NCBI GenBank assembly: GCA_965223415.1
Contig: OZ245002.1
Span: 2,528,001 to 2,592,000 of the forward strand
DNA from: Myxococcota bacterium
Lineage (GTDB): Bacteria; Myxococcota_A; UBA9160; UBA6930
DNA: 64,000 nucleotides
Direction: 5' to 3'
Shown: piece by piece, positions 236-15,995 of the stretch
Numbering within the stretch: position 1 is the first letter of the stretch
Layout: every line of letters starts with the position of its first letter
Notes under the pieces: generated by a model
What the model was told of the DNA's origin: nothing
The model's input: the letters and a program-made list of their open reading frames with translations, nothing else
Database searches by the model: none
Position numbers and translations under genes: made by a program

Positions 236-248
236 TCGCCGAGGCCCT

Positions 249-359: not shown

Positions 360-365
360 AGCTGC

Positions 366-860
366 TCACTCGACTCGATAGATCAGCCAAGCCGAAAAGA
401 CGATGAAGCCGACGCCGAGGCATGTAAGGAGGCCCAGTTGGAAGATGCCTGGGTTGAGCGAGATCACGCTGAGCCCGGTGACCAAGAGAGCACCGATCTC
501 GACGAAGACTGCGAGTGGCACAACCGCATAGAGGTAGGGGTAGGGACCGCGGTCGCCGGTGCGCTCGACGCTTCGATTGCGTTTCAGTACGAAGACGGAG
601 AAGAGAAGCATCGCGAGGCCGAGCGCCCCGCTGCAGGCCACCAAGGTTGTTTCAACGGCGACGCCAGTCTCGACTAACGCCGAGGGAACGAGAGAGAACA
701 CCAACGCCATGCCACTCCAGCCGAGCATCTGGCGGAGAGCTAGACGGTCTCGTTCGCTGAATCCGTCTTGGGCACGGCGCTGAAGGGCTGCCGCAACTCC
801 GGAGAACCCAGCTAGGGCTACTGCAATCTCGGCTATGACCTCGTAGGACTGTAGTTCCAT
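366..860 (-). CDS. integron cassette gene, hypothetical multi-pass membrane protein
   Basis: 164 aa with about 5 hydrophobic segments (AEIAVALAGFSGV motif). It lies between an R' remnant (AGGCGGC, 872-878) and attC1. Confidence 0.75.
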   Translation of the reverse strand: MELQSYEVIAEIAVALAGFSGVAAALQRRAQDGFSERDRLALRQMLGWSGMALVFSLVPSALVETGVAVETTLVACSGALGLAMLLFSVFVLKRNRSVERTGDRGPYPYLYAVVPLAVFVEIGALLVTGLSVISLNPGIFQLGLLTCLGVGFIVFSAWLIYRVE

Positions 861-878
861 CGGCTCGCGCAGCCGCCT

Positions 879-1268
879 TGTGTGTTCCGCCTAGCGCCAG
901 ATTCGGGATAGGGTAGGTGTTTCGATCGGGGAGACCGTAGCTGCCTGAAGCCAGGTGAGCCTGAGAGTTGGATGAATCCCCCGTCCTTCTCGCCATGCCT
1001 TGAAGTATGCGAGGCCCGAGAGCCCGGATCTACAAAGTCGGTAGACGAGGATTCAGGGTCGGGCGACCGAGCGAGATTCTACACCGAGGAGGGAAACGAG
1101 CGGGCCGGGAATGGGGGGCTGGCCCAGGCCTTGGTTCGTCGGCGCAGCGCCGCGCGTGTGCGTCGAGGTGAAGGGCATCTACCACCTCGAGCCGTGTCTG
1201 TGGCCGGACGACGCAGCTCGGATCGAGGTGATGGTGGCGAACCCGCGAGCCACGAAGGATCTTGGCTC
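879..1268 (+). mobile_element. degenerate IS110 remnant (left end, bridge-RNA region, eroded recombinase fragment), related to the element at 5304-6543
   Basis: Same junction GCCGC-CT-TGT as 5297-5306. Shares blocks GCTGCCTGAAGCCAG, GAGGCCCGAGAGCC, TCTACAA and CAGGGTCGGG. Peptide remnant VEVKGIYHLE...VMVANPRA resembles VLESTGVYGLD...VMVANPRA. Confidence 0.85.
930..1075 (+). ncRNA. orphan bridge-RNA-like sequence of the IS110 remnant
   Basis: Homologous to 5360-5495. Guide-position segments are GCTGCCT (940-946), GAGAGTTGG (963-971), GAAGTATG (1002-1009) and TACAA (1031-1035). Confidence 0.6.
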
Positions 1269-1270
1269 GG

Positions 1271-1291
1271 GTCAGCTGCAGCCGGTTAGGC
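1271..1291 (-). other. attC site 2, R''/L'' half only
   Basis: Minus strand GCCTAAC-CGGCTGCAGCTGAC overlaps the TAA stop of the DUF2442 gene. The rest is replaced by the IS110 remnant. Confidence 0.75.
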
Positions 1292-1558
1292 GGCGCCCCT
1301 CTGCTTGGGCGGCGCGGGTGCGCCGCGGAGGAGGCCTTCCGCACTGAGGTCTTCATCCACATCCGGCCAGTGAATTCCGTGGCCACCACCACAGAGCTCC
1401 CACTTCTCGCGTTGCTCACGGGTGGCGTGCAGGAGCCGAGGGAACCAAGCGAGCGGAACAGAAATGGTGCGACCATCAGCAAGCGTCGCGTGAAGCGAGT
1501 CGTCATCGATTTCGACATCGATGATTCGCTCGCCCGCTCTAGGTTCCGAAGTAACCAT
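1286..1558 (-). CDS. DUF2442 family protein (toxin-antitoxin pair with DUF4160)
   Basis: LADGRTISVPLAWFPRLLHAT...GIHWPDVDEDLSAEGLL is the typical DUF2442 signature. It overlaps the upstream DUF4160 gene. Confidence 0.9.
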   Translation of the reverse strand: MVTSEPRAGERIIDVEIDDDSLHATLADGRTISVPLAWFPRLLHATREQREKWELCGGGHGIHWPDVDEDLSAEGLLRGAPAPPKQRGAA

Positions 1559-1775
1559 TCCAGGCCTCGAAGAGAGATCGTTCGTTGGATCGAATCAGCG
1601 CTTCGATCTGTCGCAGTTCCCGCGGGCCGAACCCGAGGTTTCGCGCCAACCCAACCGGAGCGAGCCAGAACTTCGCGGTTCGATCGTCGCGATCAACGTG
1701 AACGTGCGGAGGTTCGTTCGGCTCATGGCTGTAGAAGTATATCCGGTAGGGTCCGGACCGAAGAACCGTCGGCAT
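1539..1775 (-). CDS. DUF4160 family protein (toxin-antitoxin pair with DUF2442)
   Basis: MPTVLRSGPYRIYFYSHEPNEPPHVHV...AKFWL...AWNGYFG is the typical DUF4160 signature. Confidence 0.9.
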   Translation of the reverse strand: MPTVLRSGPYRIYFYSHEPNEPPHVHVDRDDRTAKFWLAPVGLARNLGFGPRELRQIEALIRSNERSLFEAWNGYFGT

Positions 1776-1781
1776 GGCTCA

Positions 1782-1820
1782 CCGCAAGGTATCGGATTCC
1801 CAAGCGAAATCGCCTTGCGG
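1782..1820. promoter_or_regulatory. inverted repeat upstream of the TA operon, putative autoregulatory operator
   Basis: CCGCAAGG (1782-1789) and CCTTGCGG (1813-1820), starting 6 bp from the DUF4160 start codon. Confidence 0.45.
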
Positions 1821-1855
1821 CACCACCTCGCAGTAGGAGGGGGCCGAGGCACTAG

Positions 1856-3146
1856 CAGGCTGCGGAAAAACCCCGTGCGACGGGTCGAATCGGTTGGTAC
1901 AGGCATACCGGGGGGATGGAGATGCGCGGAACCGATCGAACGCAGTCCACGATGTTCAGCTACGTGTCGCCGGAGGCGCGTGTCCCCGCCGATCATCCAC
2001 TGCGCGTGACGCGGGAGATGACGAATCGCGCCCTGGTCCGGCTGGACGGGAGGTTGCGGAAGCTGTACTCGCGGACGGGTCGGCCGTCGATTCCGCCCGA
2101 GCACCTGTTGCGGGCCCTGCTGCTGCAGGTGCTCTACTCGGTGCGAAGCGAGCGGATGCTGATGGAGCAGCTCGAGTACAACCTGCTGTTCCGCTGGTTC
2201 GTGGGGCTCGAGATGGACGACCGGGTCTGGGACGTGACGGTGTTCACGAAGAATCGGGATCGGTTGCTTCGGGGAGAGATCGCGGAGGGGTTCTTTCAGG
2301 CCGTGTTGGCGGAGGCCCGCGAGGAGGGGCTTCTGTCGGACGAGCACTTCACGGTGGACGGCACGCTGATCGAGGCATGGGCGGGGCAGAAGAGCTTTCG
2401 GCCGAAGGACGAGGACCGGGGCGGCCGCGGGGGTGGACGGAAGGCGACGGAGCGGGACTTCCACGGTGAGCGTAGGAAGAACGACACGCACGCCTCGACG
2501 ACGGACCCGGAGTCCCGGCTCTACCGCAAGGGGAAGGGGAAGGAAGCGAAGCTGTGCTTCATGGGCCACGTGGTGACGGAGAACCGGCATGGCCTGGTGG
2601 TGGCGGCCAAGACGACGCTGGCCACGGGCACGGCGGAGCGCGAGGCCTCGGTGGCGATGGTGAAGCGGGTGCCACGCGGACGGCGATCGACGTTGGGCGG
2701 AGACAAGGGCTACGACACGGTGTCGCATGTCGAAGAGCTTCGAGAGCTGGGCGTGACCCCGCACGTCGCGCAGAACGACAAGGGCCGCCGCAGCGCGATC
2801 GATGATCGAACGACGACGCACGTGGGCTACGAGATCAGCCAGCGCAAACGCAAGGCGATCGAGCAGGTCTTCGGCTGGGGGAAGACGGTAGGCCCGATTC
2901 GCAAGGTGAAGCATCGCGGCAAGGAGCGGGTGGGCTGGATGTTCACGTTCACCCAGGCGGCCTACAACCTTGTGAGGATGAGGAACCTGCTATGCCCCAC
3001 GTAGCTTGTCGGGTCGAGTGGAGGGCCCCGTTGGCAGCGAGCCGGGCGTCAACCGGCGGCAAGGCCTCGATTCCGCGCTCCTTTCCTAGCCAAAGCGCCT
3101 CCAAGGCACCGTTCTCTGCGTACCATCGGCGTTCTTCCGCAGCCTG
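1856..3146 (+). mobile_element. IS5-family insertion sequence
   Basis: Terminal IRs CAGGCTGCGGAAAAAC / GTTCTTCCGCAGCCTG. CTAG target duplication at 1852-1855 and 3147-3150. Confidence 0.9.
1916..3004 (+). CDS. IS5-family DDE transposase
   Basis: MFSYVSPEARVPADHPLR, GRPSIPPE, FTVDGTLIEAWA, TTDPESRL, GGDKGYD and RKAIEQVFGWGK motifs. Confidence 0.92.
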   Translation: MEMRGTDRTQSTMFSYVSPEARVPADHPLRVTREMTNRALVRLDGRLRKLYSRTGRPSIPPEHLLRALLLQVLYSVRSERMLMEQLEYNLLFRWFVGLEMDDRVWDVTVFTKNRDRLLRGEIAEGFFQAVLAEAREEGLLSDEHFTVDGTLIEAWAGQKSFRPKDEDRGGRGGGRKATERDFHGERRKNDTHASTTDPESRLYRKGKGKEAKLCFMGHVVTENRHGLVVAAKTTLATGTAEREASVAMVKRVPRGRRSTLGGDKGYDTVSHVEELRELGVTPHVAQNDKGRRSAIDDRTTTHVGYEISQRKRKAIEQVFGWGKTVGPIRKVKHRGKERVGWMFTFTQAAYNLVRMRNLLCPT

Positions 3147-3350
3147 CTAGGACCCGGGGCCAAAGACGGAGAGATACGAGTCTAGGGCTGCGCTGAGCCA
3201 GCTGTCGTCGAGCCGCCGCAACTCGTCGATTCGCTCCTCGGGTTGGAGAATGTCGAGAAGGAGCTTCCCGAAGGGCAATTCGGGCTTGGCATCCCAGGCA
3301 CTGCCCAGCGCCTCGAGGATCTCCGCTCGCTCCTCTTCGCGGTTGGACAC
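3147..3350 (-). CDS. small hypothetical cassette protein
   Basis: 67 aa (ILEALGSAWDAKPELPFGKLL) with GTG start, downstream of attC3. Its TAG stop is part of the IS5 CTAG target. Confidence 0.55.
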   Translation of the reverse strand: MSNREEERAEILEALGSAWDAKPELPFGKLLLDILQPEERIDELRRLDDSWLSAALDSYLSVFGPGS

Positions 3351-3420
3351 CCCGCCAGCCTACCCCTAGAAGGTTCGCTCGCTGGCGCCCGATCGCGTCC
3401 AACCTGTCCGCGTTCGCCAA

Positions 3421-3521
3421 GCCGCCTTGTACCTCTGATCCAGCCGGCCAAGGAACAACCCCAGGCTACCATGGCCGTTTGAAGGGTGCTTGGAGCCGTC
3501 AGCTGCAGCCGCTTGTTAGGC
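3421..3521 (-). other. attC site 3 (R' disrupted by an 11-bp IS110 left-end scar)
   Basis: Minus strand GCCTAAC-AAGCGGCTGCAGCTGAC at 3498-3521. At the far end, GCCGC-CT-TGTACCTCTGA (3421-3438) is identical to 5297-5314. Confidence 0.8.
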
Positions 3522-3528
3522 GCCGCGC

Positions 3529-4786
3529 GGTACGGTCCGGCCACATCCTTTACAGGAGTCCAGGGACATCGTTTACACCCGGGGGATGCCCTGGATGGAA
3601 ACGGATGCAAGGAAGCAGCGGCAGGCGTTCGTTCGCGACTACGAGAGCGGTCAGTGGTCGATGAGCGAGCTGTGTCGGCGGTATCGTGTCTCCCGGCCCA
3701 CAGGCTACAAGTGGCTCGGGCGCTTCGAGTCGGAGGGGGAGGCCGGCCTGGAGGAGAGGTCCCGTGCGCCGGCTCGCTGCCCGCACAGGACGCCAGCGAG
3801 CGTGGAGCGCAAGATCCTGGCCCTTCGCGCCGAGTACGGCTGGGGTGCGAAGAAGATCTTGCAGGTGCTCGAGCGCCGGTACCCGAAGATGCAGAGGCCC
3901 GCGCGAAGCACGGTGAACGCGATCCTCGATCGCCACGGCAAGCTGCGCAAGAACCGACGTCGGAAGAAGTGGTCGCATCCCGGCGCTGCGTCGCTGTCGA
4001 CCGACCACCCGAACCAGGTGTGGCCCGCGGACTTCAAGGGCCAATTCAAGATGCGCAACGGTCGCTACTGCTACCCGCTGACCGTGACCGACCACTGCAG
4101 CCGCAAGCTCCTGATGTGCCGCGGGCTGCACTCGATTCGCACCGAGGGCGTGAAGCCGCTGTTTCGGGAGCTCTTTCGCGAGGTCGGACTTCCCGAGGCG
4201 ATTCGCACCGACAACGGTGCCCCCTTCGCATCGACCGGGATCCACGGCCTGTGCGAACTCAACGTGTGGTGGATGAAGCTCGGCATCGTGCACCAGCGCA
4301 TCCGTCCTTCGAGCCCCCAACAGAACGGGCAGCACGAGAGGATGCACAAGGACCTCAAACGCGAGGCGACCCGCCCGCCTGGCGCGAACCTCAACGTCCA
4401 GCAGCGGATGCTCGAGGCCTTTCGTCGACGCTACAACGAGGAGCGGCCGCACGAAGCACTCGGTGGAGCGTTTCCCGAGGAGCGCTACGAGCCCTCGCCG
4501 CGGCCGTACCCCAGTCGCCTCTCGCCGCCGGAGTACCCTGCGCAGATGGAAGTGCGCCGCGTGAGCCGGGCCGGGACGTTTCGGCTGAAGGCGAAGCAGC
4601 CCTTCCTGAGCAACGCACTGGCCGATGAGTACATCGGACTTGAAGAGATCGGCGACGGCATCTGGAGCATCGTCTACTACGAGACGATCCTGGGCCGCAT
4701 CGACGAGCGCAGCAGGAAGATCACCGGAGTCTGAGAGGTGTAAACGATCTACCTGGACTTGTGTAAAGGATCAGCCGGACCGGTCA
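3529..4786 (+). mobile_element. IS481-family insertion sequence
   Basis: Imperfect IRs of about 50 bp: CGGTCCGG..ATCCTTTACA..AGTCCAGG..ATCGTTTACACC and its complement at about 4737-4786. No clear TSD. Confidence 0.85.
3586..4734 (+). CDS. IS481-family transposase (HTH + rve integrase core)
   Basis: MPWMETD..SMSELCRRYRVSRPTGYKW; W.ADFKG, LTVTDHCSR, IRTDNGAPF, PQQNGQHERMH and YNEERPHEAL motifs. Confidence 0.93.
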   Translation: MPWMETDARKQRQAFVRDYESGQWSMSELCRRYRVSRPTGYKWLGRFESEGEAGLEERSRAPARCPHRTPASVERKILALRAEYGWGAKKILQVLERRYPKMQRPARSTVNAILDRHGKLRKNRRRKKWSHPGAASLSTDHPNQVWPADFKGQFKMRNGRYCYPLTVTDHCSRKLLMCRGLHSIRTEGVKPLFRELFREVGLPEAIRTDNGAPFASTGIHGLCELNVWWMKLGIVHQRIRPSSPQQNGQHERMHKDLKREATRPPGANLNVQQRMLEAFRRRYNEERPHEALGGAFPEERYEPSPRPYPSRLSPPEYPAQMEVRRVSRAGTFRLKAKQPFLSNALADEYIGLEEIGDGIWSIVYYETILGRIDERSRKITGV

Positions 4787-4790
4787 GGCC

Positions 4791-5249
4791 CTAGAACCTG
4801 GAGCTGAGCCAGGTCGCATTCCTGGCCAACAGAAAACCCACGAGAACCCTTGCGAGAGGAGACACCAGGTACCCGATGAACGTCGTCGAACTCATCCTCT
4901 CAGGAGCTGACATGGCCATTGAAAATAGAACTACGAACGCAGAGAGAAGCGAAGCAGAGCCTGCAGCCATGAAGAAGATCCCGAGCAGAACGACGCCGAG
5001 GGAGAGCCACTGCGCCCCCGGGGCAACGCTCGGCGGGTTGTGCTCTGGCATGCTGAATGCGACGTAACGCGAGAGCACCAGGAGGACGACTCCTGGAATC
5101 CAGTTGCCAGCTAGCGTGGGCCAGGAGTCCAACAGCATCGACGAGAGGGGCCTCACAAGATCCTCGGACTGGCCCATGACCAAGTAGTAACTGGAAGCCT
5201 CGTGGGCCCATTCGGCGACACCGGACGCAAGAAAGAACAGGCCGAGCAA
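4791..5249 (-). CDS. integron cassette gene, hypothetical membrane protein (start uncertain; frame open to about 5285)
   Basis: Four hydrophobic segments, lower GC, and located between the attC4 R' site and attC3. Confidence 0.65.
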   Translation of the reverse strand: MLGLFFLASGVAEWAHEASSYYLVMGQSEDLVRPLSSMLLDSWPTLAGNWIPGVVLLVLSRYVAFSMPEHNPPSVAPGAQWLSLGVVLLGIFFMAAGSASLLSAFVVLFSMAMSAPERMSSTTFIGYLVSPLARVLVGFLLARNATWLSSRF

Positions 5250-5344
5250 CGCCGTCCCAGTCCGCGCAACTTCGGTCAGCTTGAACCCCCCTTCGCGCCG
5301 CCTTGTACCTCTGAGCAGGCTCTTCGGGCCTGAGTGAGACTCCG

Positions 5345-5500
5345 AGATGGGTTCCCGGGAAAGGCCGTCGCTGCCTGAAGCCAGAGAGCTTGTCCGTTAG
5401 ATGGGCCTCCCGCCCTCGTCACCCATGCCGTGGAGTATCCGAGGCCCGAGAGCCTGCGTCTACAAGGTCCGTAGGTGAATGTGCAGGGTCGGGAGACCCG
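5345..5500 (+). ncRNA. bridge RNA of IS110-A (boundaries approximate)
   Basis: Target loop AGGCC[GTCGCTGCCTG]AAGC-CAGAGA-GCTT[GTCCGTTAGATG]GGCCT. Donor loop has GGAGTATC (5432-5439) and TACAAG (5461-5466) around the AGGC-CCGAGA-GCCT hairpin. Confidence 0.85.
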
Positions 5501-5530
5501 GGTCCCAGCTTATCACGGGGAGGAGAGACC

Positions 5531-6526
5531 TTGAAGAAGTGTCATTACGTGGGCGTGGACGTCGGGGCGAAGGAGCTCGTCGTCGCCATCGACCGGAACG
5601 GAACTCGCGAGGGCGGGCTGGTCTTTGCGAACGATCCCAAGGGCCACCAGAGGCTGATTCGGTGGGCCACGAAGGGGAATGCGACGGCGCGCGTCGTCCT
5701 GGAATCGACCGGGGTGTACGGCCTCGACCTCGCGTTCGCGCTTCACCGTGCGAAGGCGTCCCAGGTGATGGTGGCGAACCCGCGGGCCATTGCCGCGTTC
5801 GCCAAGGCATCGCTTCAACGCTCCAAGACGGATGCGCTCGATGCGGAAACGATTCTCGAGTTCGGAATGCGCATGGAGTTTTCCGCCTGGACTCCGCCGG
5901 ACCCCCGAATTCTGGAGGTACGGGCCCTCTCCCGCCGCGTGGAGGCTCTGAGCAAGACCGTGACGCAGGAGAAGAACCGGCTCCATGCCAACGACCAGAG
6001 CGAGGAGCTCAGTGAGTTCGTGAAGCAAGACATCCGCGAACTGATCGAGCTCCTGGAGGGGCGAATCGATCGGCTGCGCAAGCAAGCGTTGAAGGTGATC
6101 GAGCAGAGCCCCGAGCTCGCCAGAGACTTCGGCCACATCACATCGATCAAGGGTATCGCCGACGCAGCCGGCATCCAGTTGCTCGCCGAGCTAGGCACCT
6201 TGCCCAAGGACATGACGACCCGGCAATGGGTCGCGCATGCGGGCCTCGACCCCCGACAGTTTCAATCGGGCACCTCTGTGCACAAGCCAGCTCGCATCAG
6301 CAAGACCGGCAACGCCCACCTTCGCCGCGCACTCTTTCTTCCTGCGATGGTCGCTGCACGCTGGGAACCGAACGTGAAGGCCTTCTACGAGAAGCTGCTC
6401 TCCAAGGGCAAAACCAAGATGCAAGCACTCGTCGCCGTCATGCGGAAGCTGCTCCACGCCATCTACGGCATGCTCCGCCACGACCAGGACTTCCTTGGCG
6501 AGAAATTCTTCGCCACGAAGGGTTGA
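5531..6526 (+). CDS. IS110-family DEDD recombinase/transposase
   Basis: TTG start after AGGAGAG. Motifs VGVDVGAK, VLESTGVY, KTDALDA, HAGLDPRQFQSGTS, SKTGNAHLRRALF and VAVMRKLL. Confidence 0.95.
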   Translation: MKKCHYVGVDVGAKELVVAIDRNGTREGGLVFANDPKGHQRLIRWATKGNATARVVLESTGVYGLDLAFALHRAKASQVMVANPRAIAAFAKASLQRSKTDALDAETILEFGMRMEFSAWTPPDPRILEVRALSRRVEALSKTVTQEKNRLHANDQSEELSEFVKQDIRELIELLEGRIDRLRKQALKVIEQSPELARDFGHITSIKGIADAAGIQLLAELGTLPKDMTTRQWVAHAGLDPRQFQSGTSVHKPARISKTGNAHLRRALFLPAMVAARWEPNVKAFYEKLLSKGKTKMQALVAVMRKLLHAIYGMLRHDQDFLGEKFFATKG

Positions 6527-6543
6527 CGACGAAGGGAGTATCT

Positions 6544-6646
6544 AACGGACAGGCGGCTCAGCTGCTGGGCAGGCCCCGAAGCTCACTGAGGCGCCTGGGT
6601 GGAACCCAAGAGTACCACGCCCCAGTTGGAACGCGCGGTTGCCCGG
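6544..6646 (-). other. attC site 4, central segment with L' box (between IS110-A and IS1111-B)
   Basis: Minus strand GCAGCTGAGCCGCCTGTCCGTT, followed by AG-GC once IS110-A is removed. The interior is homologous to attC1 (CCGAAGCTC.CTGAG...GTACCACGCC...GCGGTT). Confidence 0.85.
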
Positions 6647-6724
6647 AGGGTATAGGGAGGTCAGCTCCTTGGAGAACAGCCACCTTGGCTGTGTTCCAAC
6701 AAACACTCCCCAAGGAGACTGACC

Positions 6725-7774
6725 ATGACGACAGAGTACTTCGCTGGGATCGACTTGCATCGCACCGTGATCCAGATCTGCGTGCTGGATGCGCGGGGTG
6801 AGAAGATCGCCGAGGAGAGGATCCGCTCCGAGAGCCTTGAACAGGGCCTCGGGGTCGTGGAGCGGCTGAAGTTCTTCGGACCCCATTGCCGCGTAGCCGT
6901 CGAGGCGTTGGGCCTCAACCGGTGGTTCGTCAACGCCTGCCGAGAGGCGCAGCTCGACGTTCTGGTCTGTGATCCGCGCAAGCTCGACCTGAAGAAGCTC
7001 GGCAAGAAGACGGACCGGCGAGATGCAGCCGAGATTGCACGCCGGCTCTGGCTCGGTGATCTGGATCGGGTGGCAACGACCTACTACCCGAGCGACGAGG
7101 AGTACGGGAGGAGGAAGCTCCTTCGGGTCCGCCACCGCCTCGTCCAGATGCGCCAACAGGCCGTGAACCAGCTCCGGGGCTTCCTGAACGCCTACCGGAT
7201 TCCCGCTCCCACGAGCGCGCTCTATACCAAGCCGAGCCGGGAGAAGCTCCGCACCGTCACCCTGCCGACCCTGGAGATGCAGACCGCCTTCAAGGCCCTG
7301 CTCCAGGTGCTCGATAGCCTGCAGGGCCAGGTGCTGGCTCTCGATCGGGAGATCCGACGGATCGGGCGAGAGGATCCCGACGTCCAGGCCCTCGAGCAGG
7401 AGCTCCCGAGCATCGGGACGCAATCGGCTGCCACGCTGCTCGCCGAGATCGGCGACCCGCACCGATTCCGAGGCCCCCGTGCGGTCTCGGCCTTCGCCGG
7501 CTTCACCCCCAAGGTGAACCAGTCAGCCGACCACGCCCACCACGGCCGCATGACCCGCCAAGGCCAGGCCGAGCTCCGCTGGATCGTCAGCCAATGGGCG
7601 GTTCGCCTGATGAAGGACGACCCGTTGGTTCGTGCCTGGGCGAAGACGATGCGGACCCGCGTCCACAAGAACAAGGTCCGCATGGCCTTGGCTCGCAGAC
7701 TCCTCGTCAGCGTCTGGGTCACGCTCACCCGCGGCGAGGCCTTCGATCTCCGGAGGTGCCTTGGCATGGCGTAG
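6725..7774 (+). CDS. IS110/IS1111-family recombinase
   Basis: AGIDLH, VAVEA, KKTDRRDA, AFAGFTPKVNQSA and MALARRL motifs. Confidence 0.93.
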   Translation: MTTEYFAGIDLHRTVIQICVLDARGEKIAEERIRSESLEQGLGVVERLKFFGPHCRVAVEALGLNRWFVNACREAQLDVLVCDPRKLDLKKLGKKTDRRDAAEIARRLWLGDLDRVATTYYPSDEEYGRRKLLRVRHRLVQMRQQAVNQLRGFLNAYRIPAPTSALYTKPSREKLRTVTLPTLEMQTAFKALLQVLDSLQGQVLALDREIRRIGREDPDVQALEQELPSIGTQSAATLLAEIGDPHRFRGPRAVSAFAGFTPKVNQSADHAHHGRMTRQGQAELRWIVSQWAVRLMKDDPLVRAWAKTMRTRVHKNKVRMALARRLLVSVWVTLTRGEAFDLRRCLGMA

Positions 7775-7802
7775 CCCCGCTCCCCCAGGACCCCTTCTCG
7801 CT

Positions 7803-7968
7803 TGTGTTCCAACGAAGACGGTAGGCGGGCAGCTGACTGCGGCCCATGAGCCCTTGGCCCCGATTCACCACCGTCGCCCCGAACCCCTCATTGAGCCCAC
7901 GAGGCCGACAACGCGTTTGGACTGAACCCGAACCCGCAGGGACGCAAGCCGATTCCGTTGGAGGACAC
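7803..7968 (+). ncRNA. seek/bridge RNA of IS1111-B
   Basis: Closing stem GTGTTCCAACG / CGTTGGAGGACAC. Inner stem GACGGT/ACCGTC encloses GCAGCTGAC (7829-7837), the exact reverse complement of the right flank GTCAGCTGC (8022-8030). Confidence 0.7.
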
Positions 7969-8021
7969 CACCAAGACCCACACGTGCTTCGCGATCATTG
8001 GAGTTGACACTCCCTAAACGG

Positions 8022-8037
8022 GTCAGCTGCAGCCGCT
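8022..8037 (-). other. attC site 4, L'' segment (between IS1111-B and IS110-C)
   Basis: GTCAGCTGCAGCCGCT is identical to attC3 3498-3513, where it continues TGTTAGGC. Confidence 0.85.
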
Positions 8038-8064
8038 CCTATGATGCTAGGCATGGTTAGATGA

Positions 8065-8250
8065 AGCGGCCGGTGAGCAGAGGCACTGCCCACCGGCCTT
8101 TCTCAACCGGAGCGGAAGACCGGTAGCCGTCGGGTCCCTCGTGAGACCGTTAACCAGCTTGGGTCTCCGCTCCACAGCCGCAGCGAAGCTCGAACGATCG
8201 CCTGGGCCTCTTGCGAGAGCCCGTAACCAGGAGCCCGAGTTCGTTGCACC
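8065..8250 (+). ncRNA. bridge RNA of IS110-C
   Basis: 5' hairpin GGCCGGTG..CACCGGCC. Target loop closed by GGAGCGGA/TCCGCTCC holds GTAGCCG (8123-8129) and TAACCAGC (8151-8158). Donor loop holds AGGAG (8229-8233), complementary to the left end CT-CCT. Confidence 0.7.
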
Positions 8251-8262
8251 TTGGAGTCTACC

Positions 8263-8805
8263 ATGGGGATGAACGTCGGGATCGACGTCTCGAAACACTC
8301 GCTTGATTGGACCTCAGGAAGCAAGGGGAAGCTTCAGCACACCCGCAACGAGCCGCGGGCCATCGCCCACCTCCTGCGTCGGATGGCCGAGCTCGACCCC
8401 GAGCGCATCGTCGTCGAGTCGACCGGGGGCTACGAGCGCCCGGTGGTCCAGAAGCTCGCCGAGGCGGGACTCCCGGTCGTCGTCGTGAACCCGGTTCGCG
8501 TTCGGCGCTTCGCCGAAGGCCTGGGGCTGCTGGCGAAGACGGACGCGGCAGATGCGCAGGTGCTCGCACTCTACGGCGAGAAGGCCGGGCCGCCGATCCG
8601 GCCGATTCCGATGGGGAGAAGCCGTCTGCTGGCCGATCTCATCGCACGGCGCCGCCAGCTCGTCTCGATCCTGGTGGCCGAGAAGGGTCGGCGGGAAGCG
8701 GCGCCTCGAGCTGCGCAGGCCTCGATCACGAGGATTCTCCGTGCTCTCGAGCGCGAGGTCGACGGCATCGACCAGCGCATCCAGAAGGCGATCGAAGACG
8801 ACCTC
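8263..8805 (+). pseudogene. IS110 recombinase, N-terminal DEDD half only
   Basis: VGIDVSK, VVESTGGYE and AKTDAADA motifs. The frame runs into the IS21 end at 8806, and the C-terminal domain is not found after 11107. Confidence 0.88.
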
Positions 8806-8940
8806 TGTCGAGGGACGTCATCTCTTGCGCGCTAAGAGGACGGCTAGTTTTGCGCACCCCCCTGGGTTGATGTTCGGTTCTTCCTTCTTCTCTTCCGCTC
8901 TCCGAAGGAGAGCACGGCCGTCAGGCCGCCCTCTGGGGCC

Positions 8941-9741
8941 TCAACGCTGGGCGCTTTGCCCCGCGGCCTGCTCGAGCTCGCGGAGCCGGTAGCTCCGCCC
9001 CGAGATGTTGAGCACCTGGCTGTGGTGGAGGAGGCGATCGAGGATGGCGGTGGCCAGCACCTCGTCGCCCGCCAGCACCTCGGGCCAGTCGGCGATGCCC
9101 TTGTTCGTGGTGATCAGGATCGAGCCCCTCCCATAGCGGTAGGAGACGAGCCGGAAGAAGAGGCTCGCCTCCTGGCGCGTCATGGGCTCGAAGCCGACCT
9201 CGTCGATGACGAGGAGCGCCACGTTCATGTGCTTGCGCCGCCGCAGCCGTTGCGGGCTGATCTCGGCGTCGCGCTTGAGGGCCGCCAGCAGGTCCTCGAG
9301 GCGATGGAAGGCCACGGAGAAGCCGTTCTCCACGGCCCGCACCCCCAGGGCCACCGCCAGGTGGGTCTTGCCCACTCCCGGCGGACCCTGGATCAGCAGA
9401 CTCTCCTTGGCCCGGATCCACGCGCAGGTGCCCAGCGTCTCGATCCGGCTCCGCTCCACACTCGGCTGGAAGGCGAAGTCGAAGTTGCCGAGGGTCTGCC
9501 CCGTGGGAAGGCCCGAGAGACGGAGCGAGGTCTTCATCCTCCGCTCCTCGCGGTGCTGCAGCTCGGCCTCGAGCAGCAGGTCGAGGAAGCGGTGGGGCAC
9601 GAGGTCGTCCTTGGTCGCTCGGGCCAGCTCCTCGCCGATGTGCTCGGCCGCGTGATGGAGGCCGAGGCGCACGAGCCGCTCGCGGGTCGGGTCGAGATCC
9701 ACCTTGCCGCCCTTCTTGGGCACCGGGTTTCCCGCCGTCAT
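8941..9741 (-). CDS. istB: IS21 helper AAA+ ATPase
   Basis: FDFAFQP, GPPGVGKTHLA, LLVIDEVG, ITTNK and AILDRLLHH motifs. Confidence 0.95.
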   Translation of the reverse strand: MTAGNPVPKKGGKVDLDPTRERLVRLGLHHAAEHIGEELARATKDDLVPHRFLDLLLEAELQHREERRMKTSLRLSGLPTGQTLGNFDFAFQPSVERSRIETLGTCAWIRAKESLLIQGPPGVGKTHLAVALGVRAVENGFSVAFHRLEDLLAALKRDAEISPQRLRRRKHMNVALLVIDEVGFEPMTRQEASLFFRLVSYRYGRGSILITTNKGIADWPEVLAGDEVLATAILDRLLHHSQVLNISGRSYRLRELEQAAGQSAQR

Positions 9742-11024
9742 CGCGCCACCTCCGCCAGATCGGCATAGAGGTCGATCGGCCGCTGCTCCGGCTCCATCGC
9801 CCACAGCTCCTGGAGGCGTCGACCCATGCGCCCGAGCGGTACGGGCGCCTCCACCCCCTCCGTGCTCGGCCCCTCGTAGTGGCTCGGGTCCAGCAGCAGG
9901 CGGCTTCGCGTGTGGCGCGGGTGCGCGGCCACCACCGAGCCCTCGGCCCAGACCTGCACCTGCCGGGCGCAGCCGCGCACCTCGACGCTCTGCTCGACGA
10001 AGCGGAAGGGGACGCTGTAGGTACGCCCCTCGAAGCGCACCGTGGCGTCGCGCCCGACACGTCGCATCACGGCCAGGTCGAAGGGCTCGGGAAGCCGCTC
10101 GGGCAGGGCCCCGAGATGGGGCTTCTCCGCCTCCCACGCCTGGAAGACCGTCGTGCCCGTCGCCGGGCACTGCCGCCGGTGGCTCGAGCGCGCCACCTGG
10201 CCGTCCGTCCACGCTTGCAGCGACTCCAGGCTCTCGTGCTCCCGCCGACGCGGATCGAAGCCCCGCCGGTGCCCCAGGATCCGACGCTCCACCTTCCCCT
10301 TCTCCTGCGGCTGGCGGGGACGGGTGGCGTCCACGTGGAAGCGAAGGGCCCCGGCATAGCTCGCGTAAGCCGGGTTCACCGTCCCCCATGGCCCCGCCCC
10401 CTTCGCCACCGCTGTCTTCACGTTGTCGACCCGCAGCACCGCCGGCACCCCGCCCAGCCGCTCGAAGGCCCGGTTGTGCACGTCCAGCCACGCCAGCGTG
10501 TCCGCCCGCTCCGACCACACCACCGCTTCTCGCCGCGAGTGCGAGAGCACCAGGTGGAAGGCATGCAGGTCCACCTCCTGGCCCCCGATCCGCACGCCCG
10601 GAAACTCGCCCCAGTCCACCTGACCCTGCGCCCCGGGCGGTGTCTCCACCCGACGCCGGCTCCGCACCTTCGGTCTCGGGAACCGGGCCCGCACGTACCG
10701 CTGCACGCTCTTGGAGCTCCCCGTGTACCCGTGCTCCTCCACCAGGAACTCGTGAAGCTCCTGCAGGTTCACGCCACGGCCTCCCGAGCTCGCCTCCAGC
10801 CACTCCGCGATCACCTCGTGGACCGCCTCGGCCAGGAAGGGCTTCCCGCTCCGGCCGTCTCGCGCCCCCTCCGCCAGCCGCTTCAGCCGGTAGCGCACCG
10901 CGCTCTCCCGGATCCCCAGCTGGCGGGCGATCTCCCGGTTCGAGCACCCCCGCTCGTGCAGCACTTCGATCGTCATCACTTCCTCCTGCCTCAGTCGCCG
11001 CTGCCCCACGCCCCCCTCCCTCAC
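9738..11024 (-). CDS. istA: IS21 transposase
   Basis: N-terminal HTH, ETPPGAQGQVDWG, LSHSRR, VDNVKTAV, KGKVER and YSVP motifs. Overlaps istB by 4 bp. Confidence 0.95.
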   Translation of the reverse strand: MREGGVGQRRLRQEEVMTIEVLHERGCSNREIARQLGIRESAVRYRLKRLAEGARDGRSGKPFLAEAVHEVIAEWLEASSGGRGVNLQELHEFLVEEHGYTGSSKSVQRYVRARFPRPKVRSRRRVETPPGAQGQVDWGEFPGVRIGGQEVDLHAFHLVLSHSRREAVVWSERADTLAWLDVHNRAFERLGGVPAVLRVDNVKTAVAKGAGPWGTVNPAYASYAGALRFHVDATRPRQPQEKGKVERRILGHRRGFDPRRREHESLESLQAWTDGQVARSSHRRQCPATGTTVFQAWEAEKPHLGALPERLPEPFDLAVMRRVGRDATVRFEGRTYSVPFRFVEQSVEVRGCARQVQVWAEGSVVAAHPRHTRSRLLLDPSHYEGPSTEGVEAPVPLGRMGRRLQELWAMEPEQRPIDLYADLAEVAR

Positions 11025-11324
11025 GGGGAACGTGCCGCGCAGCGGCTCAACAGGAGGTGCGCAAATCTACGTGTCCTCTTAGCCCTCGAATATCACGTCC
11101 TGCGACAGTGCCGTCTGGTGCCGCCGCAGTTGTGCGTTCGAGTCCCCACCGCGTTTGCGAAATTGAGAACTGACCCTCAGGCTCGCGGAAGGAGGGTCAC
11201 TCGTAGCTTCCCGCCTAACCGCGAATGCCTGATCCAATAGGCTGAAAGGAATTCGAACCCCCGACCCTTGTATCTACTCCACTCACCCGGATCTGGTTCA
11301 ATAGGGTCAGAACGGGTTTCGGGG

Positions 11325-11465
11325 GAGGGTCGCCGTCCCGACCCAGAGGCATGGTCCTCGTACCTGAGAGAGGCGCCCTCGCCCGATCTCGCAAGCTCGA
11401 ACGGTATCCCGAGGCAGCGGTCTGCCGCTCGTCCTCGCATGCACAAGGAAGAGCACCGAGGTCGG
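11325..11465 (+). ncRNA. bridge RNA of IS110-D
   Basis: Target loop GAGGGTCGCC[GTCCCGACCCA]GAGG-CATGGT-CCTC[GTACCTGAGAGA]GGCGCCCTC. Donor guides ACGGTATC (11401-11408) and ACAAG (11443-11447). Confidence 0.85.
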
Positions 11466-11507
11466 CACCGAGGCTCCCGACGCTCCCGTTCGAGGAGGAA
11501 GAAGGGG

Positions 11508-12683
11508 ATGCGCTTCGTTGGGATCGACATCGCCTCGGAAACGCACGTCGTCGCGATGGTGGGAGAAGACGGGGGCGTGCTGCTGAAGCCGGTCTCGTTC
11601 CGGGAGGAGGCGGCTGGCTACGCACTGCTGTGGGAGAAGCTGGGAGGCCCCGAGGACACGCTCGTAACGCTCGAGGCAACGGGGCACTACTGGAAGAACC
11701 TGTTCGCGGCGCTTGCGGCGAGGGGTTTTGCCGTGGCGTTGATCAACCCGCTGCGCAGTCGCCGGTTCGCACAAGAAGACTTGGAGCGGACGAAGACCGA
11801 CGCAATCGATGCGCTCGGCCTGGCTCGCTTCGGAGCACAGAAGCGTCCGAGGGTGACTCGCCTTCCGGACGCGGCGACAGAAGAGCTTCGTGAGCTCGTC
11901 CGGCTCCGCGATCGTCTGGTTCAGGACTTCGGGGACTGCACCCGGCGGCTCCACCGCATGGTCGATCTGGGCTTCCCAGAGCTCAAACGGTACGTGAAGC
12001 ACCTCGATAGCCAGCTGTCGACGGGGCTGCTGCGGGAGTACCCCACGGCAAGAGCCTTCCAGGAAGCCTCTGTGGGGCGCGTGGCAAAGCTTCGCTACGA
12101 CGGTCGTCATCGTGTAGGCGATGCGCTCGCGAAGCAGCTCGTCGAGGCTGCGCAGAACTCGGTGGGCGCCCATCATGGCCCGGCCTACCAGGTGCAGGTG
12201 CGTTACCTGTGCGAAGACATGGACGTCTTGCGCAAGAGACTCGGCGACATCGACCGCGACATCGCGGATCAGCTATCCGCGCACGAGGTCGGAAGCTTGC
12301 TGACGACGATCGATGGGATCGGGCCGACGACGGCAGCACGGCTCATCGCGGAGCTCGGTGACCCGGCCGACTTCGCCACGGCCGCAGCCCTCGCCGCCTA
12401 CGTGGGCGTCGTTCCAGGCCTAAAGCAGTCGGGCAAGCGCCAAGGCAAACGCGGGAACCTCTCGCCAATCGGTCACGCGCGGCTACGTCGCGCACTGTGG
12501 ATGCCGACGTTGGTCGCCGTTCGGAAGAACCCCTGGGTGCGGGCCCACTACGAGCGGCTGCGCGACAACGGCAAGCCCGCAAAGGTCGCGCTGATCGCCT
12601 CGACGAGGAAGCTGCTCATCGCGGTTCACGTCGTGGCGAGGACCCGCAAGCCCTTCGTTCCACAGCTAGAGACCAACCCATGA
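11508..12683 (+). CDS. IS110-family recombinase
   Basis: VGIDIAS, LEATGHYW, KTDAIDA, YVGVVPGLKQSG and GHARLRRALW motifs. Confidence 0.95.
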   Translation: MRFVGIDIASETHVVAMVGEDGGVLLKPVSFREEAAGYALLWEKLGGPEDTLVTLEATGHYWKNLFAALAARGFAVALINPLRSRRFAQEDLERTKTDAIDALGLARFGAQKRPRVTRLPDAATEELRELVRLRDRLVQDFGDCTRRLHRMVDLGFPELKRYVKHLDSQLSTGLLREYPTARAFQEASVGRVAKLRYDGRHRVGDALAKQLVEAAQNSVGAHHGPAYQVQVRYLCEDMDVLRKRLGDIDRDIADQLSAHEVGSLLTTIDGIGPTTAARLIAELGDPADFATAAALAAYVGVVPGLKQSGKRQGKRGNLSPIGHARLRRALWMPTLVAVRKNPWVRAHYERLRDNGKPAKVALIASTRKLLIAVHVVARTRKPFVPQLETNP

Positions 12684-12773
12684 ACCGAGAAAACCGGGCC
12701 CAGCCCCTTGCTGAAGATCACGGTATCTCAGGTTCGAAGCCTGGGGGTCGGGGGCTCTCCCACCCCACGCGTC

Positions 12774-13322
12774 CTAGTCGAGGAATGCCCACAAGAGCCG
12801 TCGGCTCCTCGCGTCCAGGCTCCCCGGGCTCGACACCAGGTAGAGATCCCCGGCCACGTCCTTGATCAGGAGGCCGCCGCCGGGCATCTCGCGGGGCCAC
12901 TCGTCCCGGAGGGTCTGGAAGCTGCGCTCGCCCTGGGCCGTGCGCACGCGGAAGGTGCGGATCTCGATCTCCTCGTCCACGTCGAGCACCGCCTGGATCT
13001 CGAGCACGAAGCCCGCCTCGAGCAAGGCCGTGCCCAGCGCCCGCTGGGCCGTGTAGGGGAGGTCGGTGAGGTCGCGCACGAGCGCCACCTCCTCCTCGTC
13101 CCGGTCACGGAGCGAGACGTAGCGCGACGGCTTCGACCAGGGGAAGCAGCGCACGGGCCGCACCGAGCAGGTGCGGTCGGCAGTGCGCGCCCAGAGCTGG
13201 CCGTCGGAGCCACGCCACAGCTCGAGGCCCGCCATCGGGCGCCGCGGAGCCTGGTGCGCCACGGCGCGTCCGCGCCGGCTGGGTGCGAGGGTCTTCGGCT
13301 CTCGTCTCTGCGGGTCGTTCAT
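12774..13322 (-). CDS. DUF1854 domain protein
   Basis: VRPVRCFPWS.P..YVSL..EEVALV and GLLIKDVAGDLY..SLDARSRRLL motifs; in its usual position downstream of this ABC transporter family. Confidence 0.8.
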   Translation of the reverse strand: MNDPQRREPKTLAPSRRGRAVAHQAPRRPMAGLELWRGSDGQLWARTADRTCSVRPVRCFPWSKPSRYVSLRDRDEEEVALVRDLTDLPYTAQRALGTALLEAGFVLEIQAVLDVDEEIEIRTFRVRTAQGERSFQTLRDEWPREMPGGGLLIKDVAGDLYLVSSPGSLDARSRRLLWAFLD

Positions 13323-13353
13323 GGTTGTCCCTCGTTTCTTTCGTTCGTCTCGT

Positions 13354-15639
13354 TCATGCCTGGAGCTGCTGCTGGAGCTGCCACAGGTGTTGGAAGGTCC
13401 CCTCCGGCTTCGCCATCAGCTCGCCGGGCGTTCCACTCTCGGTGAGCCGGCCGTCCTCGATCACGAAGATGCGGTCGGCCCGCCGCAGGGTGGAGAGCCG
13501 GTGGGCGATGGCGAACACGGTGCGGCCCTCGGTGAGCCGCTCGAGCGCCTCCTGGATCTTGTACTCCGTCTCGGTATCGACGGCGCTGGTGGCCTCGTCG
13601 AGCACCAGGATGCGCGGATCGTGCAGGATGGCCCGCGCGATCGAGATCCTCTGGCGCTCGCCGCCGGAGAGCGTCTGCCCCCGCTCGCCCACCATCGTCT
13701 CGTAGCCGTTCGCGAGCTTGCAAAGGAAATCGTGGGCGTTGGCGGTGATCGCCGCCTCCACCACGTCGTCCTCGGTCGCGCCTGGCAGCCCGTAGCGGAT
13801 GTTCTCCATCACCGTGCCGTGGAAGAGGTACGGATCCTGGAGGACCATCCCGAGCTGACGCCGGAAGCTCCCGGTGTCGAGCCGGCGCACGTCGATGCCG
13901 TCGATGCGCACCTGCCCGCCCGTCACGTCGTAGAAGCGGGCCAGCAGGTTCGTCACCGTCGTCTTCCCGCCGCCGGAAGGCCCGACGAGACCGATCATCT
14001 CGCCCGGCTCCACCGCGAAAGAGACGCCCTGGATCACCTGGCGCACCCCGTCGTAGCCGAAGGTCACGTTCTCGAACTCGACCCTGCCCTCGACGGGCTC
14101 GAGGCGCACCGGGCAGCCGACGTCGACCACCTGGGGCTCGGTGTCGAGCACCTCGAAGATGCGGTGGGCGGAGCTGGTGGCGCGGTTCATGATGCGCGCC
14201 ATCTGCCCGATGATCTCGATCGGCTGCACGAACATGGTCATGTAGAGCAGGAACGCGACGAAGGTCCCGGACGTGAGCGTCGCGCCCATCTCCGAATCGC
14301 CGGGGATGACCCGCGGCAGCGCGAACACCCACACCAGCACCACCATCCCGCGCACGGCCAGCATCAGCGTCGGCCAGAACGAGGTCCACACCTCGTGGAT
14401 GCGGTTGAACTCGTCGGTCACGTTGTGGTTGCGCGCGCCGAAGCGCTCTTTCTCCCTCTCCTCCTGATGGAAAGCTTTCACGACCTTCATGCCGGGGATC
14501 GTGTCCGACACCACGTCGGTCACCGAGCTCCACTTGCGCCAGGCGCGCAGGAAGAGCTTGTTCATGCGCCGGCCGTGCCAGTAGACCCAGAGGCACAGGA
14601 AGGGCACCGGCAGGGTCATGATCAGCCCGAGCTTCCAGTCCAGGTGGATCAGCACCGCCGAGAGGCCGAGCAGCATCACGATGGAGAGCGACACGTCCAC
14701 GATGCCGAGCGCCAGGAACTCCCAGAGCCGGTCCGTATCCGCGGTGACCCGCGTGATGAGGCTTCCGGTCTTCTTCCTCGAGTAGAAGGAGAGCGAGAGC
14801 TTCTGCAGGTGCTCGTAGAGCTCGGTGCGCAGGTCTCGCGCCACGTGCTCGCCGAGCACGGCCATCCAGCGAAGCCGCGCCCAGGCGGCGAGCTGCCGCA
14901 GCAGGTAGCTCGCGGCGATCGCCACCACGGCGTACCAGGCGATCTGCTGCACGTCCGCCAGGGTCTTCGCCCCGTCCTGCACGGGCCGGATCACCTCGTC
15001 GACCAGGTAGCCGGTGAGGTAGGGCGGCACGAGCGAGAGCGCCGTCAGGACCGCCGCCGACGCCAGGCCGAAGATCACCTGCCCGCGGTAGGGCCGCAGG
15101 TAGCCGAGCAGCCGCCACACGACCGCCAGGTCGTTGCCGGCGACCAGCGCCTGGGCCTCCCGGATCGGGCCGGCCACGCTGTCCGCGTACTCCTCGTCCG
15201 GATCCGCCGGTGCGGGCACGGGCGAGCCGTCGAGGTCCCGCTCGATCAGGAACTGCAGGTTCTCCATCGCGCGACGCTGGCGGTGGGTGAAGCGGACGCG
15301 GGCGAGCGCCGGCTCCCCGGGCTCCCGCAGGAAGCGCAGGGTGTTGCAGGTGAGGCCCGGATCGAGCCGCACGGCCTGGATCGCCTCGCGGGCGAAGGTC
15401 TGCACGTCGAGCCGCCCGCCGAGGGCGCGGGCCACGGCCACGTGGCGCGGCCCGAGGGCGACCCACGACTCGGTGAGCTGGAGGCTGCCGTCGAGGTCCG
15501 CCAGCGCGTAGAGCTGGACGGGATCGCCGCCCCAGCCGTCCTCGATGGCCTCGCGCACGGCGCGCGGCATCGAGACGGGCTGGTCGGTGTATCGCTCGAG
15601 GATCTTGCGGTCAGTCGAGTCGGTCGGGTGCGCGAGCAT
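13354..15639 (-). CDS. ABC exporter, fused permease/ATPase with N-terminal extension (family paired with DUF1854)
   Basis: TM domain, GPSGGGKT, LSGGERQRISIARA, LVLDEATS and AHRLST motifs. Confidence 0.92.
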   Translation of the reverse strand: MLAHPTDSTDRKILERYTDQPVSMPRAVREAIEDGWGGDPVQLYALADLDGSLQLTESWVALGPRHVAVARALGGRLDVQTFAREAIQAVRLDPGLTCNTLRFLREPGEPALARVRFTHRQRRAMENLQFLIERDLDGSPVPAPADPDEEYADSVAGPIREAQALVAGNDLAVVWRLLGYLRPYRGQVIFGLASAAVLTALSLVPPYLTGYLVDEVIRPVQDGAKTLADVQQIAWYAVVAIAASYLLRQLAAWARLRWMAVLGEHVARDLRTELYEHLQKLSLSFYSRKKTGSLITRVTADTDRLWEFLALGIVDVSLSIVMLLGLSAVLIHLDWKLGLIMTLPVPFLCLWVYWHGRRMNKLFLRAWRKWSSVTDVVSDTIPGMKVVKAFHQEEREKERFGARNHNVTDEFNRIHEVWTSFWPTLMLAVRGMVVLVWVFALPRVIPGDSEMGATLTSGTFVAFLLYMTMFVQPIEIIGQMARIMNRATSSAHRIFEVLDTEPQVVDVGCPVRLEPVEGRVEFENVTFGYDGVRQVIQGVSFAVEPGEMIGLVGPSGGGKTTVTNLLARFYDVTGGQVRIDGIDVRRLDTGSFRRQLGMVLQDPYLFHGTVMENIRYGLPGATEDDVVEAAITANAHDFLCKLANGYETMVGERGQTLSGGERQRISIARAILHDPRILVLDEATSAVDTETEYKIQEALERLTEGRTVFAIAHRLSTLRRADRIFVIEDGRLTESGTPGELMAKPEGTFQHLWQLQQQLQA

Positions 15640-15684
15640 CGGTGGGCTTCCTTGCCCCGGGTCCGAACCTTGGAGTGCCGACCT

Positions 15685-15725
15685 AACGAAAACGGCCTTC
15701 CAGGCTCGCACCCGGAAGGCCGTTT
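15685..15725 (-). terminator. intrinsic terminator in the ABC-operon leader
   Basis: Minus strand AAACGGCCTTCC-GGGTGCGAGCCT-GGAAGGCCGTTTTCGTT, about 45 nt upstream of the ABC start codon. Confidence 0.75.
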
Positions 15726-15740
15726 GAAACGACGCGATTC

Positions 15741-15902
15741 CTAGGGTGCTGGGATTCTCTGAACGCCCTGGCTCTTGACCCGGCCATGGGGAATCCCGAA
15801 GAGGGACGGGCAGGCGTCACCGGTGAAGGCAGCGGCGGGCGCGCGGCGTACGCACACGGCCACGAAGACCGCGTCCCGGTTCTGATTCCCGATGGAGCTC
15901 AT
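15741..15902 (-). CDS. putative leader peptide (53 aa)
   Basis: ATG preceded by AGAGGTG; MSSIGNQNRDAVFVAVCVRRAPAAAFTGDAC...; the stop is 15 nt before the terminator. Confidence 0.5.
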   Translation of the reverse strand: MSSIGNQNRDAVFVAVCVRRAPAAAFTGDACPSLFGIPHGRVKSQGVQRIPAP

Positions 15903-15936
15903 GATCTCTGGATACACCTCTGCCAGTTGGGCGAGC

Positions 15937-15965: not shown

Positions 15966-15995
15966 CCCCCTTTTCGACCTCGCTACCCTGGAATC

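Follow-up and report, generated by a model that had tools for sequence, protein, structure and literature searches.

Insertion sequences of the IS110 type are RNA-guided, and a broken copy can lack one of its ends. The 64-kb stretch of DNA analysed here (the window, 64,000 nt; positions refer to it unless they carry the prefix G000, which denotes the host genome) holds such a copy, named element C, and neither its right end nor the DNA that once flanked this end is found there. The original prediction, made from the letters of the window, claimed that two internal loops in the RNA of the non-coding leader of C name both missing parts: a right end close to ACGATCG-CT and a right flank (T/G)GTTAG, i.e. 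the R'' box of an integron attC site. We therefore asked where the lost end of C is, and whether it reads as the loops would have it.

Positions 8038-8805 are the 5' half of an IS621-like IS110 element, located at the site GCAGCCG-CT in the L''/R'' arm of an attC site (Table 1), and from 8038 on the sequence diverges from the neighbouring attC sites. PF01548 was the sole domain detected in the frame of C (E 4.7e-18; 8263-8835 searched). The window half covers positions 2-175 of the NF033542 profile ('IS110 family RNA-guided transposase') and shares 64% identity with residues 1-180 of a complete relative in another genome, G043. The transposase of this relative (307 aa) reached 195 bits against NF033542 (cut-off 140) and, among solved structures, matched IS621 (E 6.2e-28) and ISCro4 (E 9e-30). 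The IS110 likeness of the C frame stops at 8805, where an IS21-family element begins, whose IstB carries PF01695 (E 1.4e-71) and whose IstA carries the domains rve and Mu-transpos_C_2.

Table 1. Features of element C, its target and the interrupting element (window positions).
Feature	Position	Strand	Basis or remark
Left part of the attC site holding C: R'/L' side and variable region up to the L'' arm	7806-8028	+	by eye; extent approximate
Left target (LT) GCAGCCG	8029-8035	+	flank read by the left target guide of C
Core dinucleotide CT, left junction of C	8036-8037	+	C itself begins at 8038
Left end and non-coding leader of C, encoding the putative bridge RNA	8038-8262	+	225 nt
TATGAT, predicted -10 half of the circle-junction promoter	8040-8045	+	in-silico end joining
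5' stem-loop of the bridge RNA	8066-8098	+	fold; helix 1 changed on both sides in 5/6 pairs
Target-binding loop module	8109-8173	+	outer stem 8109-8121/8161-8173, inner hairpin 8133-8148; helices 2 and 3
Target loop strands	8122-8132 (5') and 8149-8160 (3')	+	fold
Left target guide GUAGCCGUC	8123-8131	+	same sense as LT and core (GCAGCCGCT)
Right target guide UAACCAG and C8158	8151-8158	+	reverse complement GCTGGTTA
Donor-binding loop module	8180-8247	+	outer stem 8180-8192/8235-8247, inner hairpin 8204-8222; helices 4-6
Donor loop strands	8193-8203 (5') and 8223-8234 (3')	+	fold
Left donor guide ACGAUCGC	8194-8201	+	identical 8/8 to ACGATCG and core C, G000:2437186-2437193
Right donor guide AACCAGGAG and C8234	8225-8234	+	GGAG and A8229 pair with CT-CCT (core and start of left end)
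C transposase, N-terminal 181 codons, DEDD/RuvC-like domain	8263-8805	+	PF01548, NF033542, G043 relative
GACCTC, one copy of the 6-bp target duplication	8800-8805	+	made by IS21 insertion into C
IS21-family element interrupting C	8806-11107	-	2302 bp, ends TGTCG...CGACA, istA and istB on the minus strand

The right end of C was believed to have been deleted. It is indeed absent from the window, but it is present in the genome, displaced 99 kb upstream, a distance that depends on how the assembly ran through 18 identical repeats of 2.3 kb. When the whole genome was searched at the protein level with the G043 transposase, one N-terminal fragment, that of C, was returned along with one C-terminal fragment (G000:2436732-2437166), which belongs to the 3' half of C (G000:2436783-2437194). 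Read in order, this locus shows an IS21 right end (the copy being identical to that of the window), GACCTC, a frame with PF02371 (E 2.5e-19), its stop, TTGACC, ACGATCG-CT and GGTTAG. PF02371 is the domain absent from the window half; the frame shares 81% identity with residues 180-307 of the G043 relative and covers positions 212-341 of NF033542. The right end of C is thus ACGATCG-CT, followed by the right flank GGTTAG. The dinucleotide CT closes this end as well (G000:2437193-2437194), and there is no target duplication.

At its right end, the identical IS21 copy is followed by the second GACCTC (G000:2436783-2436788), where the transposase frame resumes. This hexamer is present at the break points of both halves, which meet at the same codon (residue 180 in the relative), indicating that IS21 split C by insertion at codon 180-181 and left the duplication GACCTC. 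With its transposase split and a second copy absent from the genome, C is presumably dead now. A DNA search of its own genome gave only C and one weak 50-nt match; in the protein search, the next best IS110 transposases were 36% identical to the G043 query and none belonged to the C clade. The only match of a protein-pattern search of genome contigs with the truncated C transposase was a distant locus of no use.

IS110 elements are commonly multi-copy, and one related genome (G007) has three copies of the related element, so the distant 3' half might be taken for the remnant of a second, independent copy, silent on the flank of C itself. We consider this highly improbable, as the genome has exactly one N-terminal and one C-terminal fragment, both cut at the same codon, with GACCTC at both breaks beside IS21 ends of the required polarity; moreover, a sister copy would still confirm the predicted end and flank. 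The two halves are in direct order, each adjoining a full IS21 copy. Eighteen identical full copies (2302 bp) are distributed over the genome, of which 8 have their own 5-6-bp duplication and 10 do not. The flanks of six copies pair in a chain (3020044 > 1852390 > 2434481 > 2536806 > 1078436 > 1086605) that includes both copies beside C, and there is a further pair, 4908727/5431082. This chain fits either serial recombination or a switching of the assembly path at the repeats. If the latter is true, the halves are contiguous in the real genome (C5'-IS21-C3') and the 99-kb gap is an assembly error, in which case only the history of C changes and the bridge-RNA reading is untouched. The abundance of identical copies, the 10 that lack a duplication of their own and the chain itself are the pattern expected from repeat switching. 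Contigs of four public runs (from one study, maybe the source of the assembly and hence not independent), compared over positions 8400-11500, stop ~29 nt inside IS21, and none of the public-run contigs examined counts as bridging the C/IS21 junction or spans an IS21 copy; metagenome rows with a small share were left aside. On the other hand, serial recombination gives the same chain of flanks, and the genome is a single 5.83-Mb contig, which suggests that reads did cross 2.3 kb. An assembly error is therefore a serious but rather unlikely explanation, and we favour the view that the halves of C were separated by serial recombination between identical IS21 copies.

At the displaced locus, the R'' box to the right of C is cut after GGTTAG by the end of another repeat (G000:2437201 onward; L275, 5202 onward). 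This end has an 18-nt terminal string resembling an inverted repeat, which occurs 14 times in the genome and is similar to the ends of an IS5-type element at 1856-3148 of the window. No matching opposite end was found within the next 8 kb.

With the right junction in hand, the loops of C can be compared with it. In the published accounts of IS621 (PMC11208160, PMC11208158), the 8-nt left donor guide has the sequence of the right end extended by the first core base, pairing of the right donor guide with the core and left end is split, and each right guide is followed by two bases termed handshake positions. Read in the same way, the first loop of C would recognise the target, its 5' strand having the sense of GCAGCCG-CT and its 3' strand being complementary to CT-GGTTA. 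The second loop would recognise the joined ends of C itself, with a 5' strand equal to ACGATCG-C and a 3' strand complementary to CT-CCT. Recombination of C would then be RNA-guided as in IS621.

The strings on which the original prediction was built are all where it placed them or close by: the flank GCAGCCG (8029-8035) and its near copy GTAGCCG (8123-8129) on the 5' side of the first loop, TAACCAGC on the 3' side of this loop (8151-8158), ACGATCGC on the 5' side of the second one (8194-8201), and GCTTGTTA in the site attC3 (3511-3518). The one-mismatch match between the complement of the right target guide and attC3 is real, but it understates the case, as the true variant CT-GGTTA fits the guide perfectly. 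The guide UAACCAGC has the complement GCTGGTTA, i.e. G-CT-GGTTA, which agrees in 8/8 positions with the last base of LT (position 7), the core and the right flank of C itself (paired flank bases G000:2437195-2437199). Its last base, C8158, corresponds to the base after the right guide, a handshake position in IS621 (PMC11208158, PMC11208160). The split pairing of the right donor guide given in Table 1 is likewise that described for IS621 (PMC11208158), and relatives that start with CT-CTT have AGAG in place of C's GGAG.

For the left target guide, comparison of GUAGCCGUC with GCAGCCGCT gives 6 identities, 2 U-G wobbles (with a bottom-strand G) and 1 mismatch (C for T at the second core base). 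It is an imperfect copy of the flank, which counts against the bridge-RNA reading. Its register is, however, fixed by covariation over 37 distinct guide/flank pairs (26 distinct left target guides, 22 distinct left flanks). In these, 204/333 positions are identical, versus a shuffle mean of 164.4 (sd 5.2), and 0/10000 shuffles reach 204; kinship among the relatives inflates this test, and the variant pairs represent several independent changes. For guide positions 1-9 the matches are 4, 1, 35, 29, 33, 30, 17, 29 and 26 of 37, position 7 thus matching in only 17 pairs. As positions 1 and 2 almost never match, the guide seems to work from position 3 to 9 in the C clade. The flanks GCATTCG, GGACCGC and GCAGTGC, for example, pair with guides holding ATTCG, ACCGC and AGTGC, respectively.

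A change of target is also apparent on the right side. Relatives in which the base equivalent to window 8155 is A, and not C, reside in CT-TGTTA(G), whereas C resided in CT-GGTTAG. The A-to-C substitution at 8155 may be regarded as a single natural retargeting event, which fits the host's CT-GGTTAG variant; C is the one element from which covariation at this G/T position is drawn. A single further copy, G004:C340, shares the right target guide of C; it is 94-95% identical over the leader and is cut before its right end.

Could these matches be fortuitous, and the leader a mere 5' untranslated region? By simple arithmetic, chance would place a 7-mer match with no more than one mismatch in 225 nt ~0.3 times and such an 8-mer ~0.08 times, so the two one-mismatch matches of the original prediction are weak on their own. 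A search of window positions 1-16000, leader RNA included, against Rfam 15 found no family at E <= 1, which also speaks for a plain leader. What raises the matches above chance is the register of the two-loop fold, the covariation of the left guide and the true right junction, which agrees 8/8 twice. Two exact 8-mers at fixed registers, a left target guide that covaries with the flank, a left donor guide that covaries with the right end and a conserved two-loop fold make coincidence the least probable of the explanations considered here, and we hold to the reading of the leader as a bridge RNA.

The predicted fold of the leader has a dG of -96.9 kcal/mol (z -3.2 versus shuffles). A consensus fold was obtained for C and 32 relatives, all less than 93% alike (n=33), and comprises 37 pairs, of which 8 changed on both sides. 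In the alignment, 97.9% of cells are paired, compared with 25-47% when the partners are slid, and the covariation score was reached by 0/500 shuffles. Most of the covariation is in the 5' stem-loop, with stems of the loop modules nearly invariant; in the aligned sequences these stems appear conserved, rather than proven by covariation. Pairs that RNAalifold placed between the donor-loop strands (columns 176-181 with 217-222) were discarded as probable partial complementarity, not structure.

The check attached to the original prediction, to read the right junctions of complete copies in relatives, gave ends and flanks as predicted. A DNA search of 60 related genomes yielded one complete copy from G043 (78% identical) and three from G007, together with fragments from G004 and G009. 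Collections of genomes and metagenomes were also scanned with sequence patterns, which left 58 rows once identical leaders had been removed, and a later scan added 3 members. The named records among them are metagenome-assembled genomes of Myxococcota and Gemmatimonadota, accompanied by many metagenome contigs. Two right-end matches, G005:C141 and G147:C31, had no target loop within 1250 nt upstream by the pattern used.

The junction table has 25 rows. All 20 complete relatives with the guide ACGAUCGC end in ACGATCG-CT, as does C itself, and 3 relatives with the donor guide ACGGUUGC end in ACGGTT(G/T)-CT. The two remaining rows are false candidates, namely the window row, where the match lies inside IS21, and L005. 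Behind ACGATCG-CT, 18 of the 19 readable right flanks are TGTTAG and 1 is TGTTGG, to which C adds its own GGTTAG, and the three G007 copies give the same reading. The scans fixed most of the right target guide or, for the last three members, the left donor guide, and hence the uniformity of the TGTTAG flanks and ACGATCG ends is partly built into the sample. On the left side, the arm CAGCTGCA (with at most 2 changes) stands just before the core in 43/48 readable flanks; the CT ending of these 48 was imposed by the search pattern and is no evidence.

Two metagenome contigs with an AT left core, L125 and L155, were dropped by this pattern. In both, the left junction reads AT and the left target guide has AU in its core positions, yet the right target guide keeps its complementarity to CT; the right junction, readable in L155 only, is CT. 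In the leader of L260, a Gemmatimonadota record, a stretch of ~28 nt is duplicated in tandem, which takes in the end of the hairpin, the right target guide and the stem that closes the target loop. Unrelated DNA also interrupts other copies of the C clade (L025, i.e. G004:C340, 4549-4691, and L026, i.e. G043:C45), in one case directly behind the target loop and in the other within the donor loop. It seems that attC arrays consist of insertions nested in one another.

The flank on both sides of C points to an integron attC site as the target. The left part of the site holding C contains the 14 nt GTCAGCT GCAGCCG, an arm that recurs in the other attC sites of the host. GCAGCCG is followed by CT-GGTTAGGC or CT-TGTTAGGC at five attC sites that are unoccupied in this genome: three read CAGCTGCAGCCGCTGGTTAGGC, exactly the target spelled by the guides of C, and two read ...CTTGTTAGGC (T for G). 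Unoccupied sites hold a single CT. The genome encodes an integron integrase (2062393-2063328; TIGR02249, 449.7 bits versus a cut-off of 265), with ~1.1 kb between it and the first of these sites. The arm CAGCTGCAG...GTTRGGC occurs at 2064436, 2071308 and 2075889 near the integrase, and also in the window and near 2.774 Mb. The site at G000:2773704 folds as a canonical attC, with GCCTAAC paired with GTTAGGC (dG -33.6); it has the same arm as the attC of C, in which both arms are interrupted. A census of ACGATCGCTNGTTAG over the taxonomic order of the host gave 7 matches in 5/193 genomes versus 1 for the reversed control, the G form occurring only in G000. Unoccupied TGCAGCCGCTNGTTAG sites were found in 0/5 fragmented genomes of the same genus. 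The attC arm at 1273-1291 of the window reads CAGCTGCAGCCG-GTTAGGC, without CT(G/T), the core and first flank base of the other sites.

The GTTAGGC boxes of the window adjoin the stops of minus-strand cassette ORFs, one pair of which is DUF2442/DUF4160, and this position identifies the box as R''. The R'' label of the original prediction is therefore justified, the box beside these stops being the reverse complement of GCCTAAC-type R'' boxes. The core CT of the C target is one base from R'', which means that C splits R'' from L''. The insertion orientation of the C clade in attC is always the same, with the L'' arm in the left flanks and the R'' box in the right flanks.

When the ends of C were joined in silico, a promoter-like sequence TTGACC-17-TATGAT was formed, with 10/12 agreement, TTGACC deriving from the right end and TATGAT from the left. 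A score of at least 9/12 was obtained in the same way for 14/16 complete relatives. Inspection of both integrated junctions of C revealed no such promoter. By analogy with IS621 and ISEc21, the bridge RNA of C would be transcribed from a promoter that exists only in the circle.

Element C is very probably an IS621-like member of the IS110 family, mobile as a circle and directed to its target by the bridge RNA that its left end encodes. Judged from sequence, it appears to possess all the features that define an IS621-like element. In common with IS621 and ISCro4, as these are described (PMC11208160, PMC11208158), it has a leader RNA upstream of the transposase composed of a 5' stem-loop, a target loop and a donor loop, left guides in top-strand sense and complementary right guides, an 8-nt left donor guide and a split right donor guide. 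It also shares with them the CT core, the lack of a target duplication, the circle-junction promoter (in C, in silico) and a short transposase (307 aa in G043). It differs from IS621 in its target, which is the L''/R'' arm of attC instead of the natural motif ATCAGGCCTAC reported for IS621 (PMC11208160). Furthermore, its right target guide pairs over 7-8 bases, not 4 as described for IS621, and the first two positions of the 9-nt left target guide are unpaired in most members of the C clade.

Insertion sequences of the IS1111 type that target attC are already known, i.e. ISKpn4, ISPst6 and ISPa25, with a guide region described as lying downstream of the gene. Going by its description, this IS1111-attC group resembles C in being formed by DEDD-transposase elements with a fixed position and orientation at one attC end, and in using as a guide an element-encoded RNA that matches both target strands. 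In the group, however, the guide region is downstream of the transposase, the top-strand match is 5' of the bottom-strand match, and there are subterminal inverted repeats; C has neither of the first two. In C there are ~27 nt between the stop codon and the right end, as opposed to the 225-nt non-coding region upstream, and the downstream arrangement is thus not found. As its guide region is upstream, C is not a member of the IS1111-attC group and is of the IS110 type, reaching the same kind of target with the sister architecture. ISEc21, according to its published description (PMC11187229), is similar in its upstream non-coding region, in a bottom-strand match 5' of the top-strand match and in its circle-junction promoter, but it targets a conserved stretch inside IS3-family transposase genes and has a transposase of 358 aa.

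The flanks and guides suggest that, in parallel with the known IS1111-attC group, there is a clade of the IS110 type that targets attC, which C represents. No IS110-type element targeting attC with an upstream guide was found in the literature covered, although the many targets of the Durrant and Siddiquee surveys may include such elements. We incline, by a small degree, to a broader interpretation, in which C belongs to an undescribed, IS621-like 'IS110-attC' clade that converged on attC independently of the IS1111-attC group, with the right guide anchored on the R'' box and the left guide tracking the L'' arm. Since this arm is variable, the guides would diversify together with the attC repertoires of their hosts. 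If this is true, an attC site in which R'' is separated from L'' should no longer be able to fold, and the cassette next to it should be frozen in place, and the C clade would constitute a second lineage parasitising cassette recombination sites.

For the bridge-RNA code, element C amounts to a blind test: neither the end nor the flank spelled by its loops is present in the 64 kb of sequence, and both were later found base for base elsewhere in the genome. As they predicted the lost junction, guide loops can be used to pair scattered IS fragments and to reconstruct rearrangements. The clade also offers a natural series of retargeted guides with tolerance of wobbles and mismatches, which may be of interest to engineers of bridge recombinases.

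Element C is not the only IS110-family element of the window. Two more were noticed at 870-1270 and 5290-6540, one complete with both domains and the other internally deleted. Both come after the same short string GCCGCCTTGT, a third example of which stands alone at 3421-3445 (by eye), and their fixed site in the cassette array is apparently another one than that of C. A fourth element (6600-7810) lies immediately to the left of the attC site holding C; it encodes a 349-aa transposase with both domains and has GTGTTCCAAC near both ends (by eye). A fifth (11247-12700) encodes a 391-aa transposase and has four near-identical further copies, located near 4.912, 4.921, 4.929 and 5.436 Mb.
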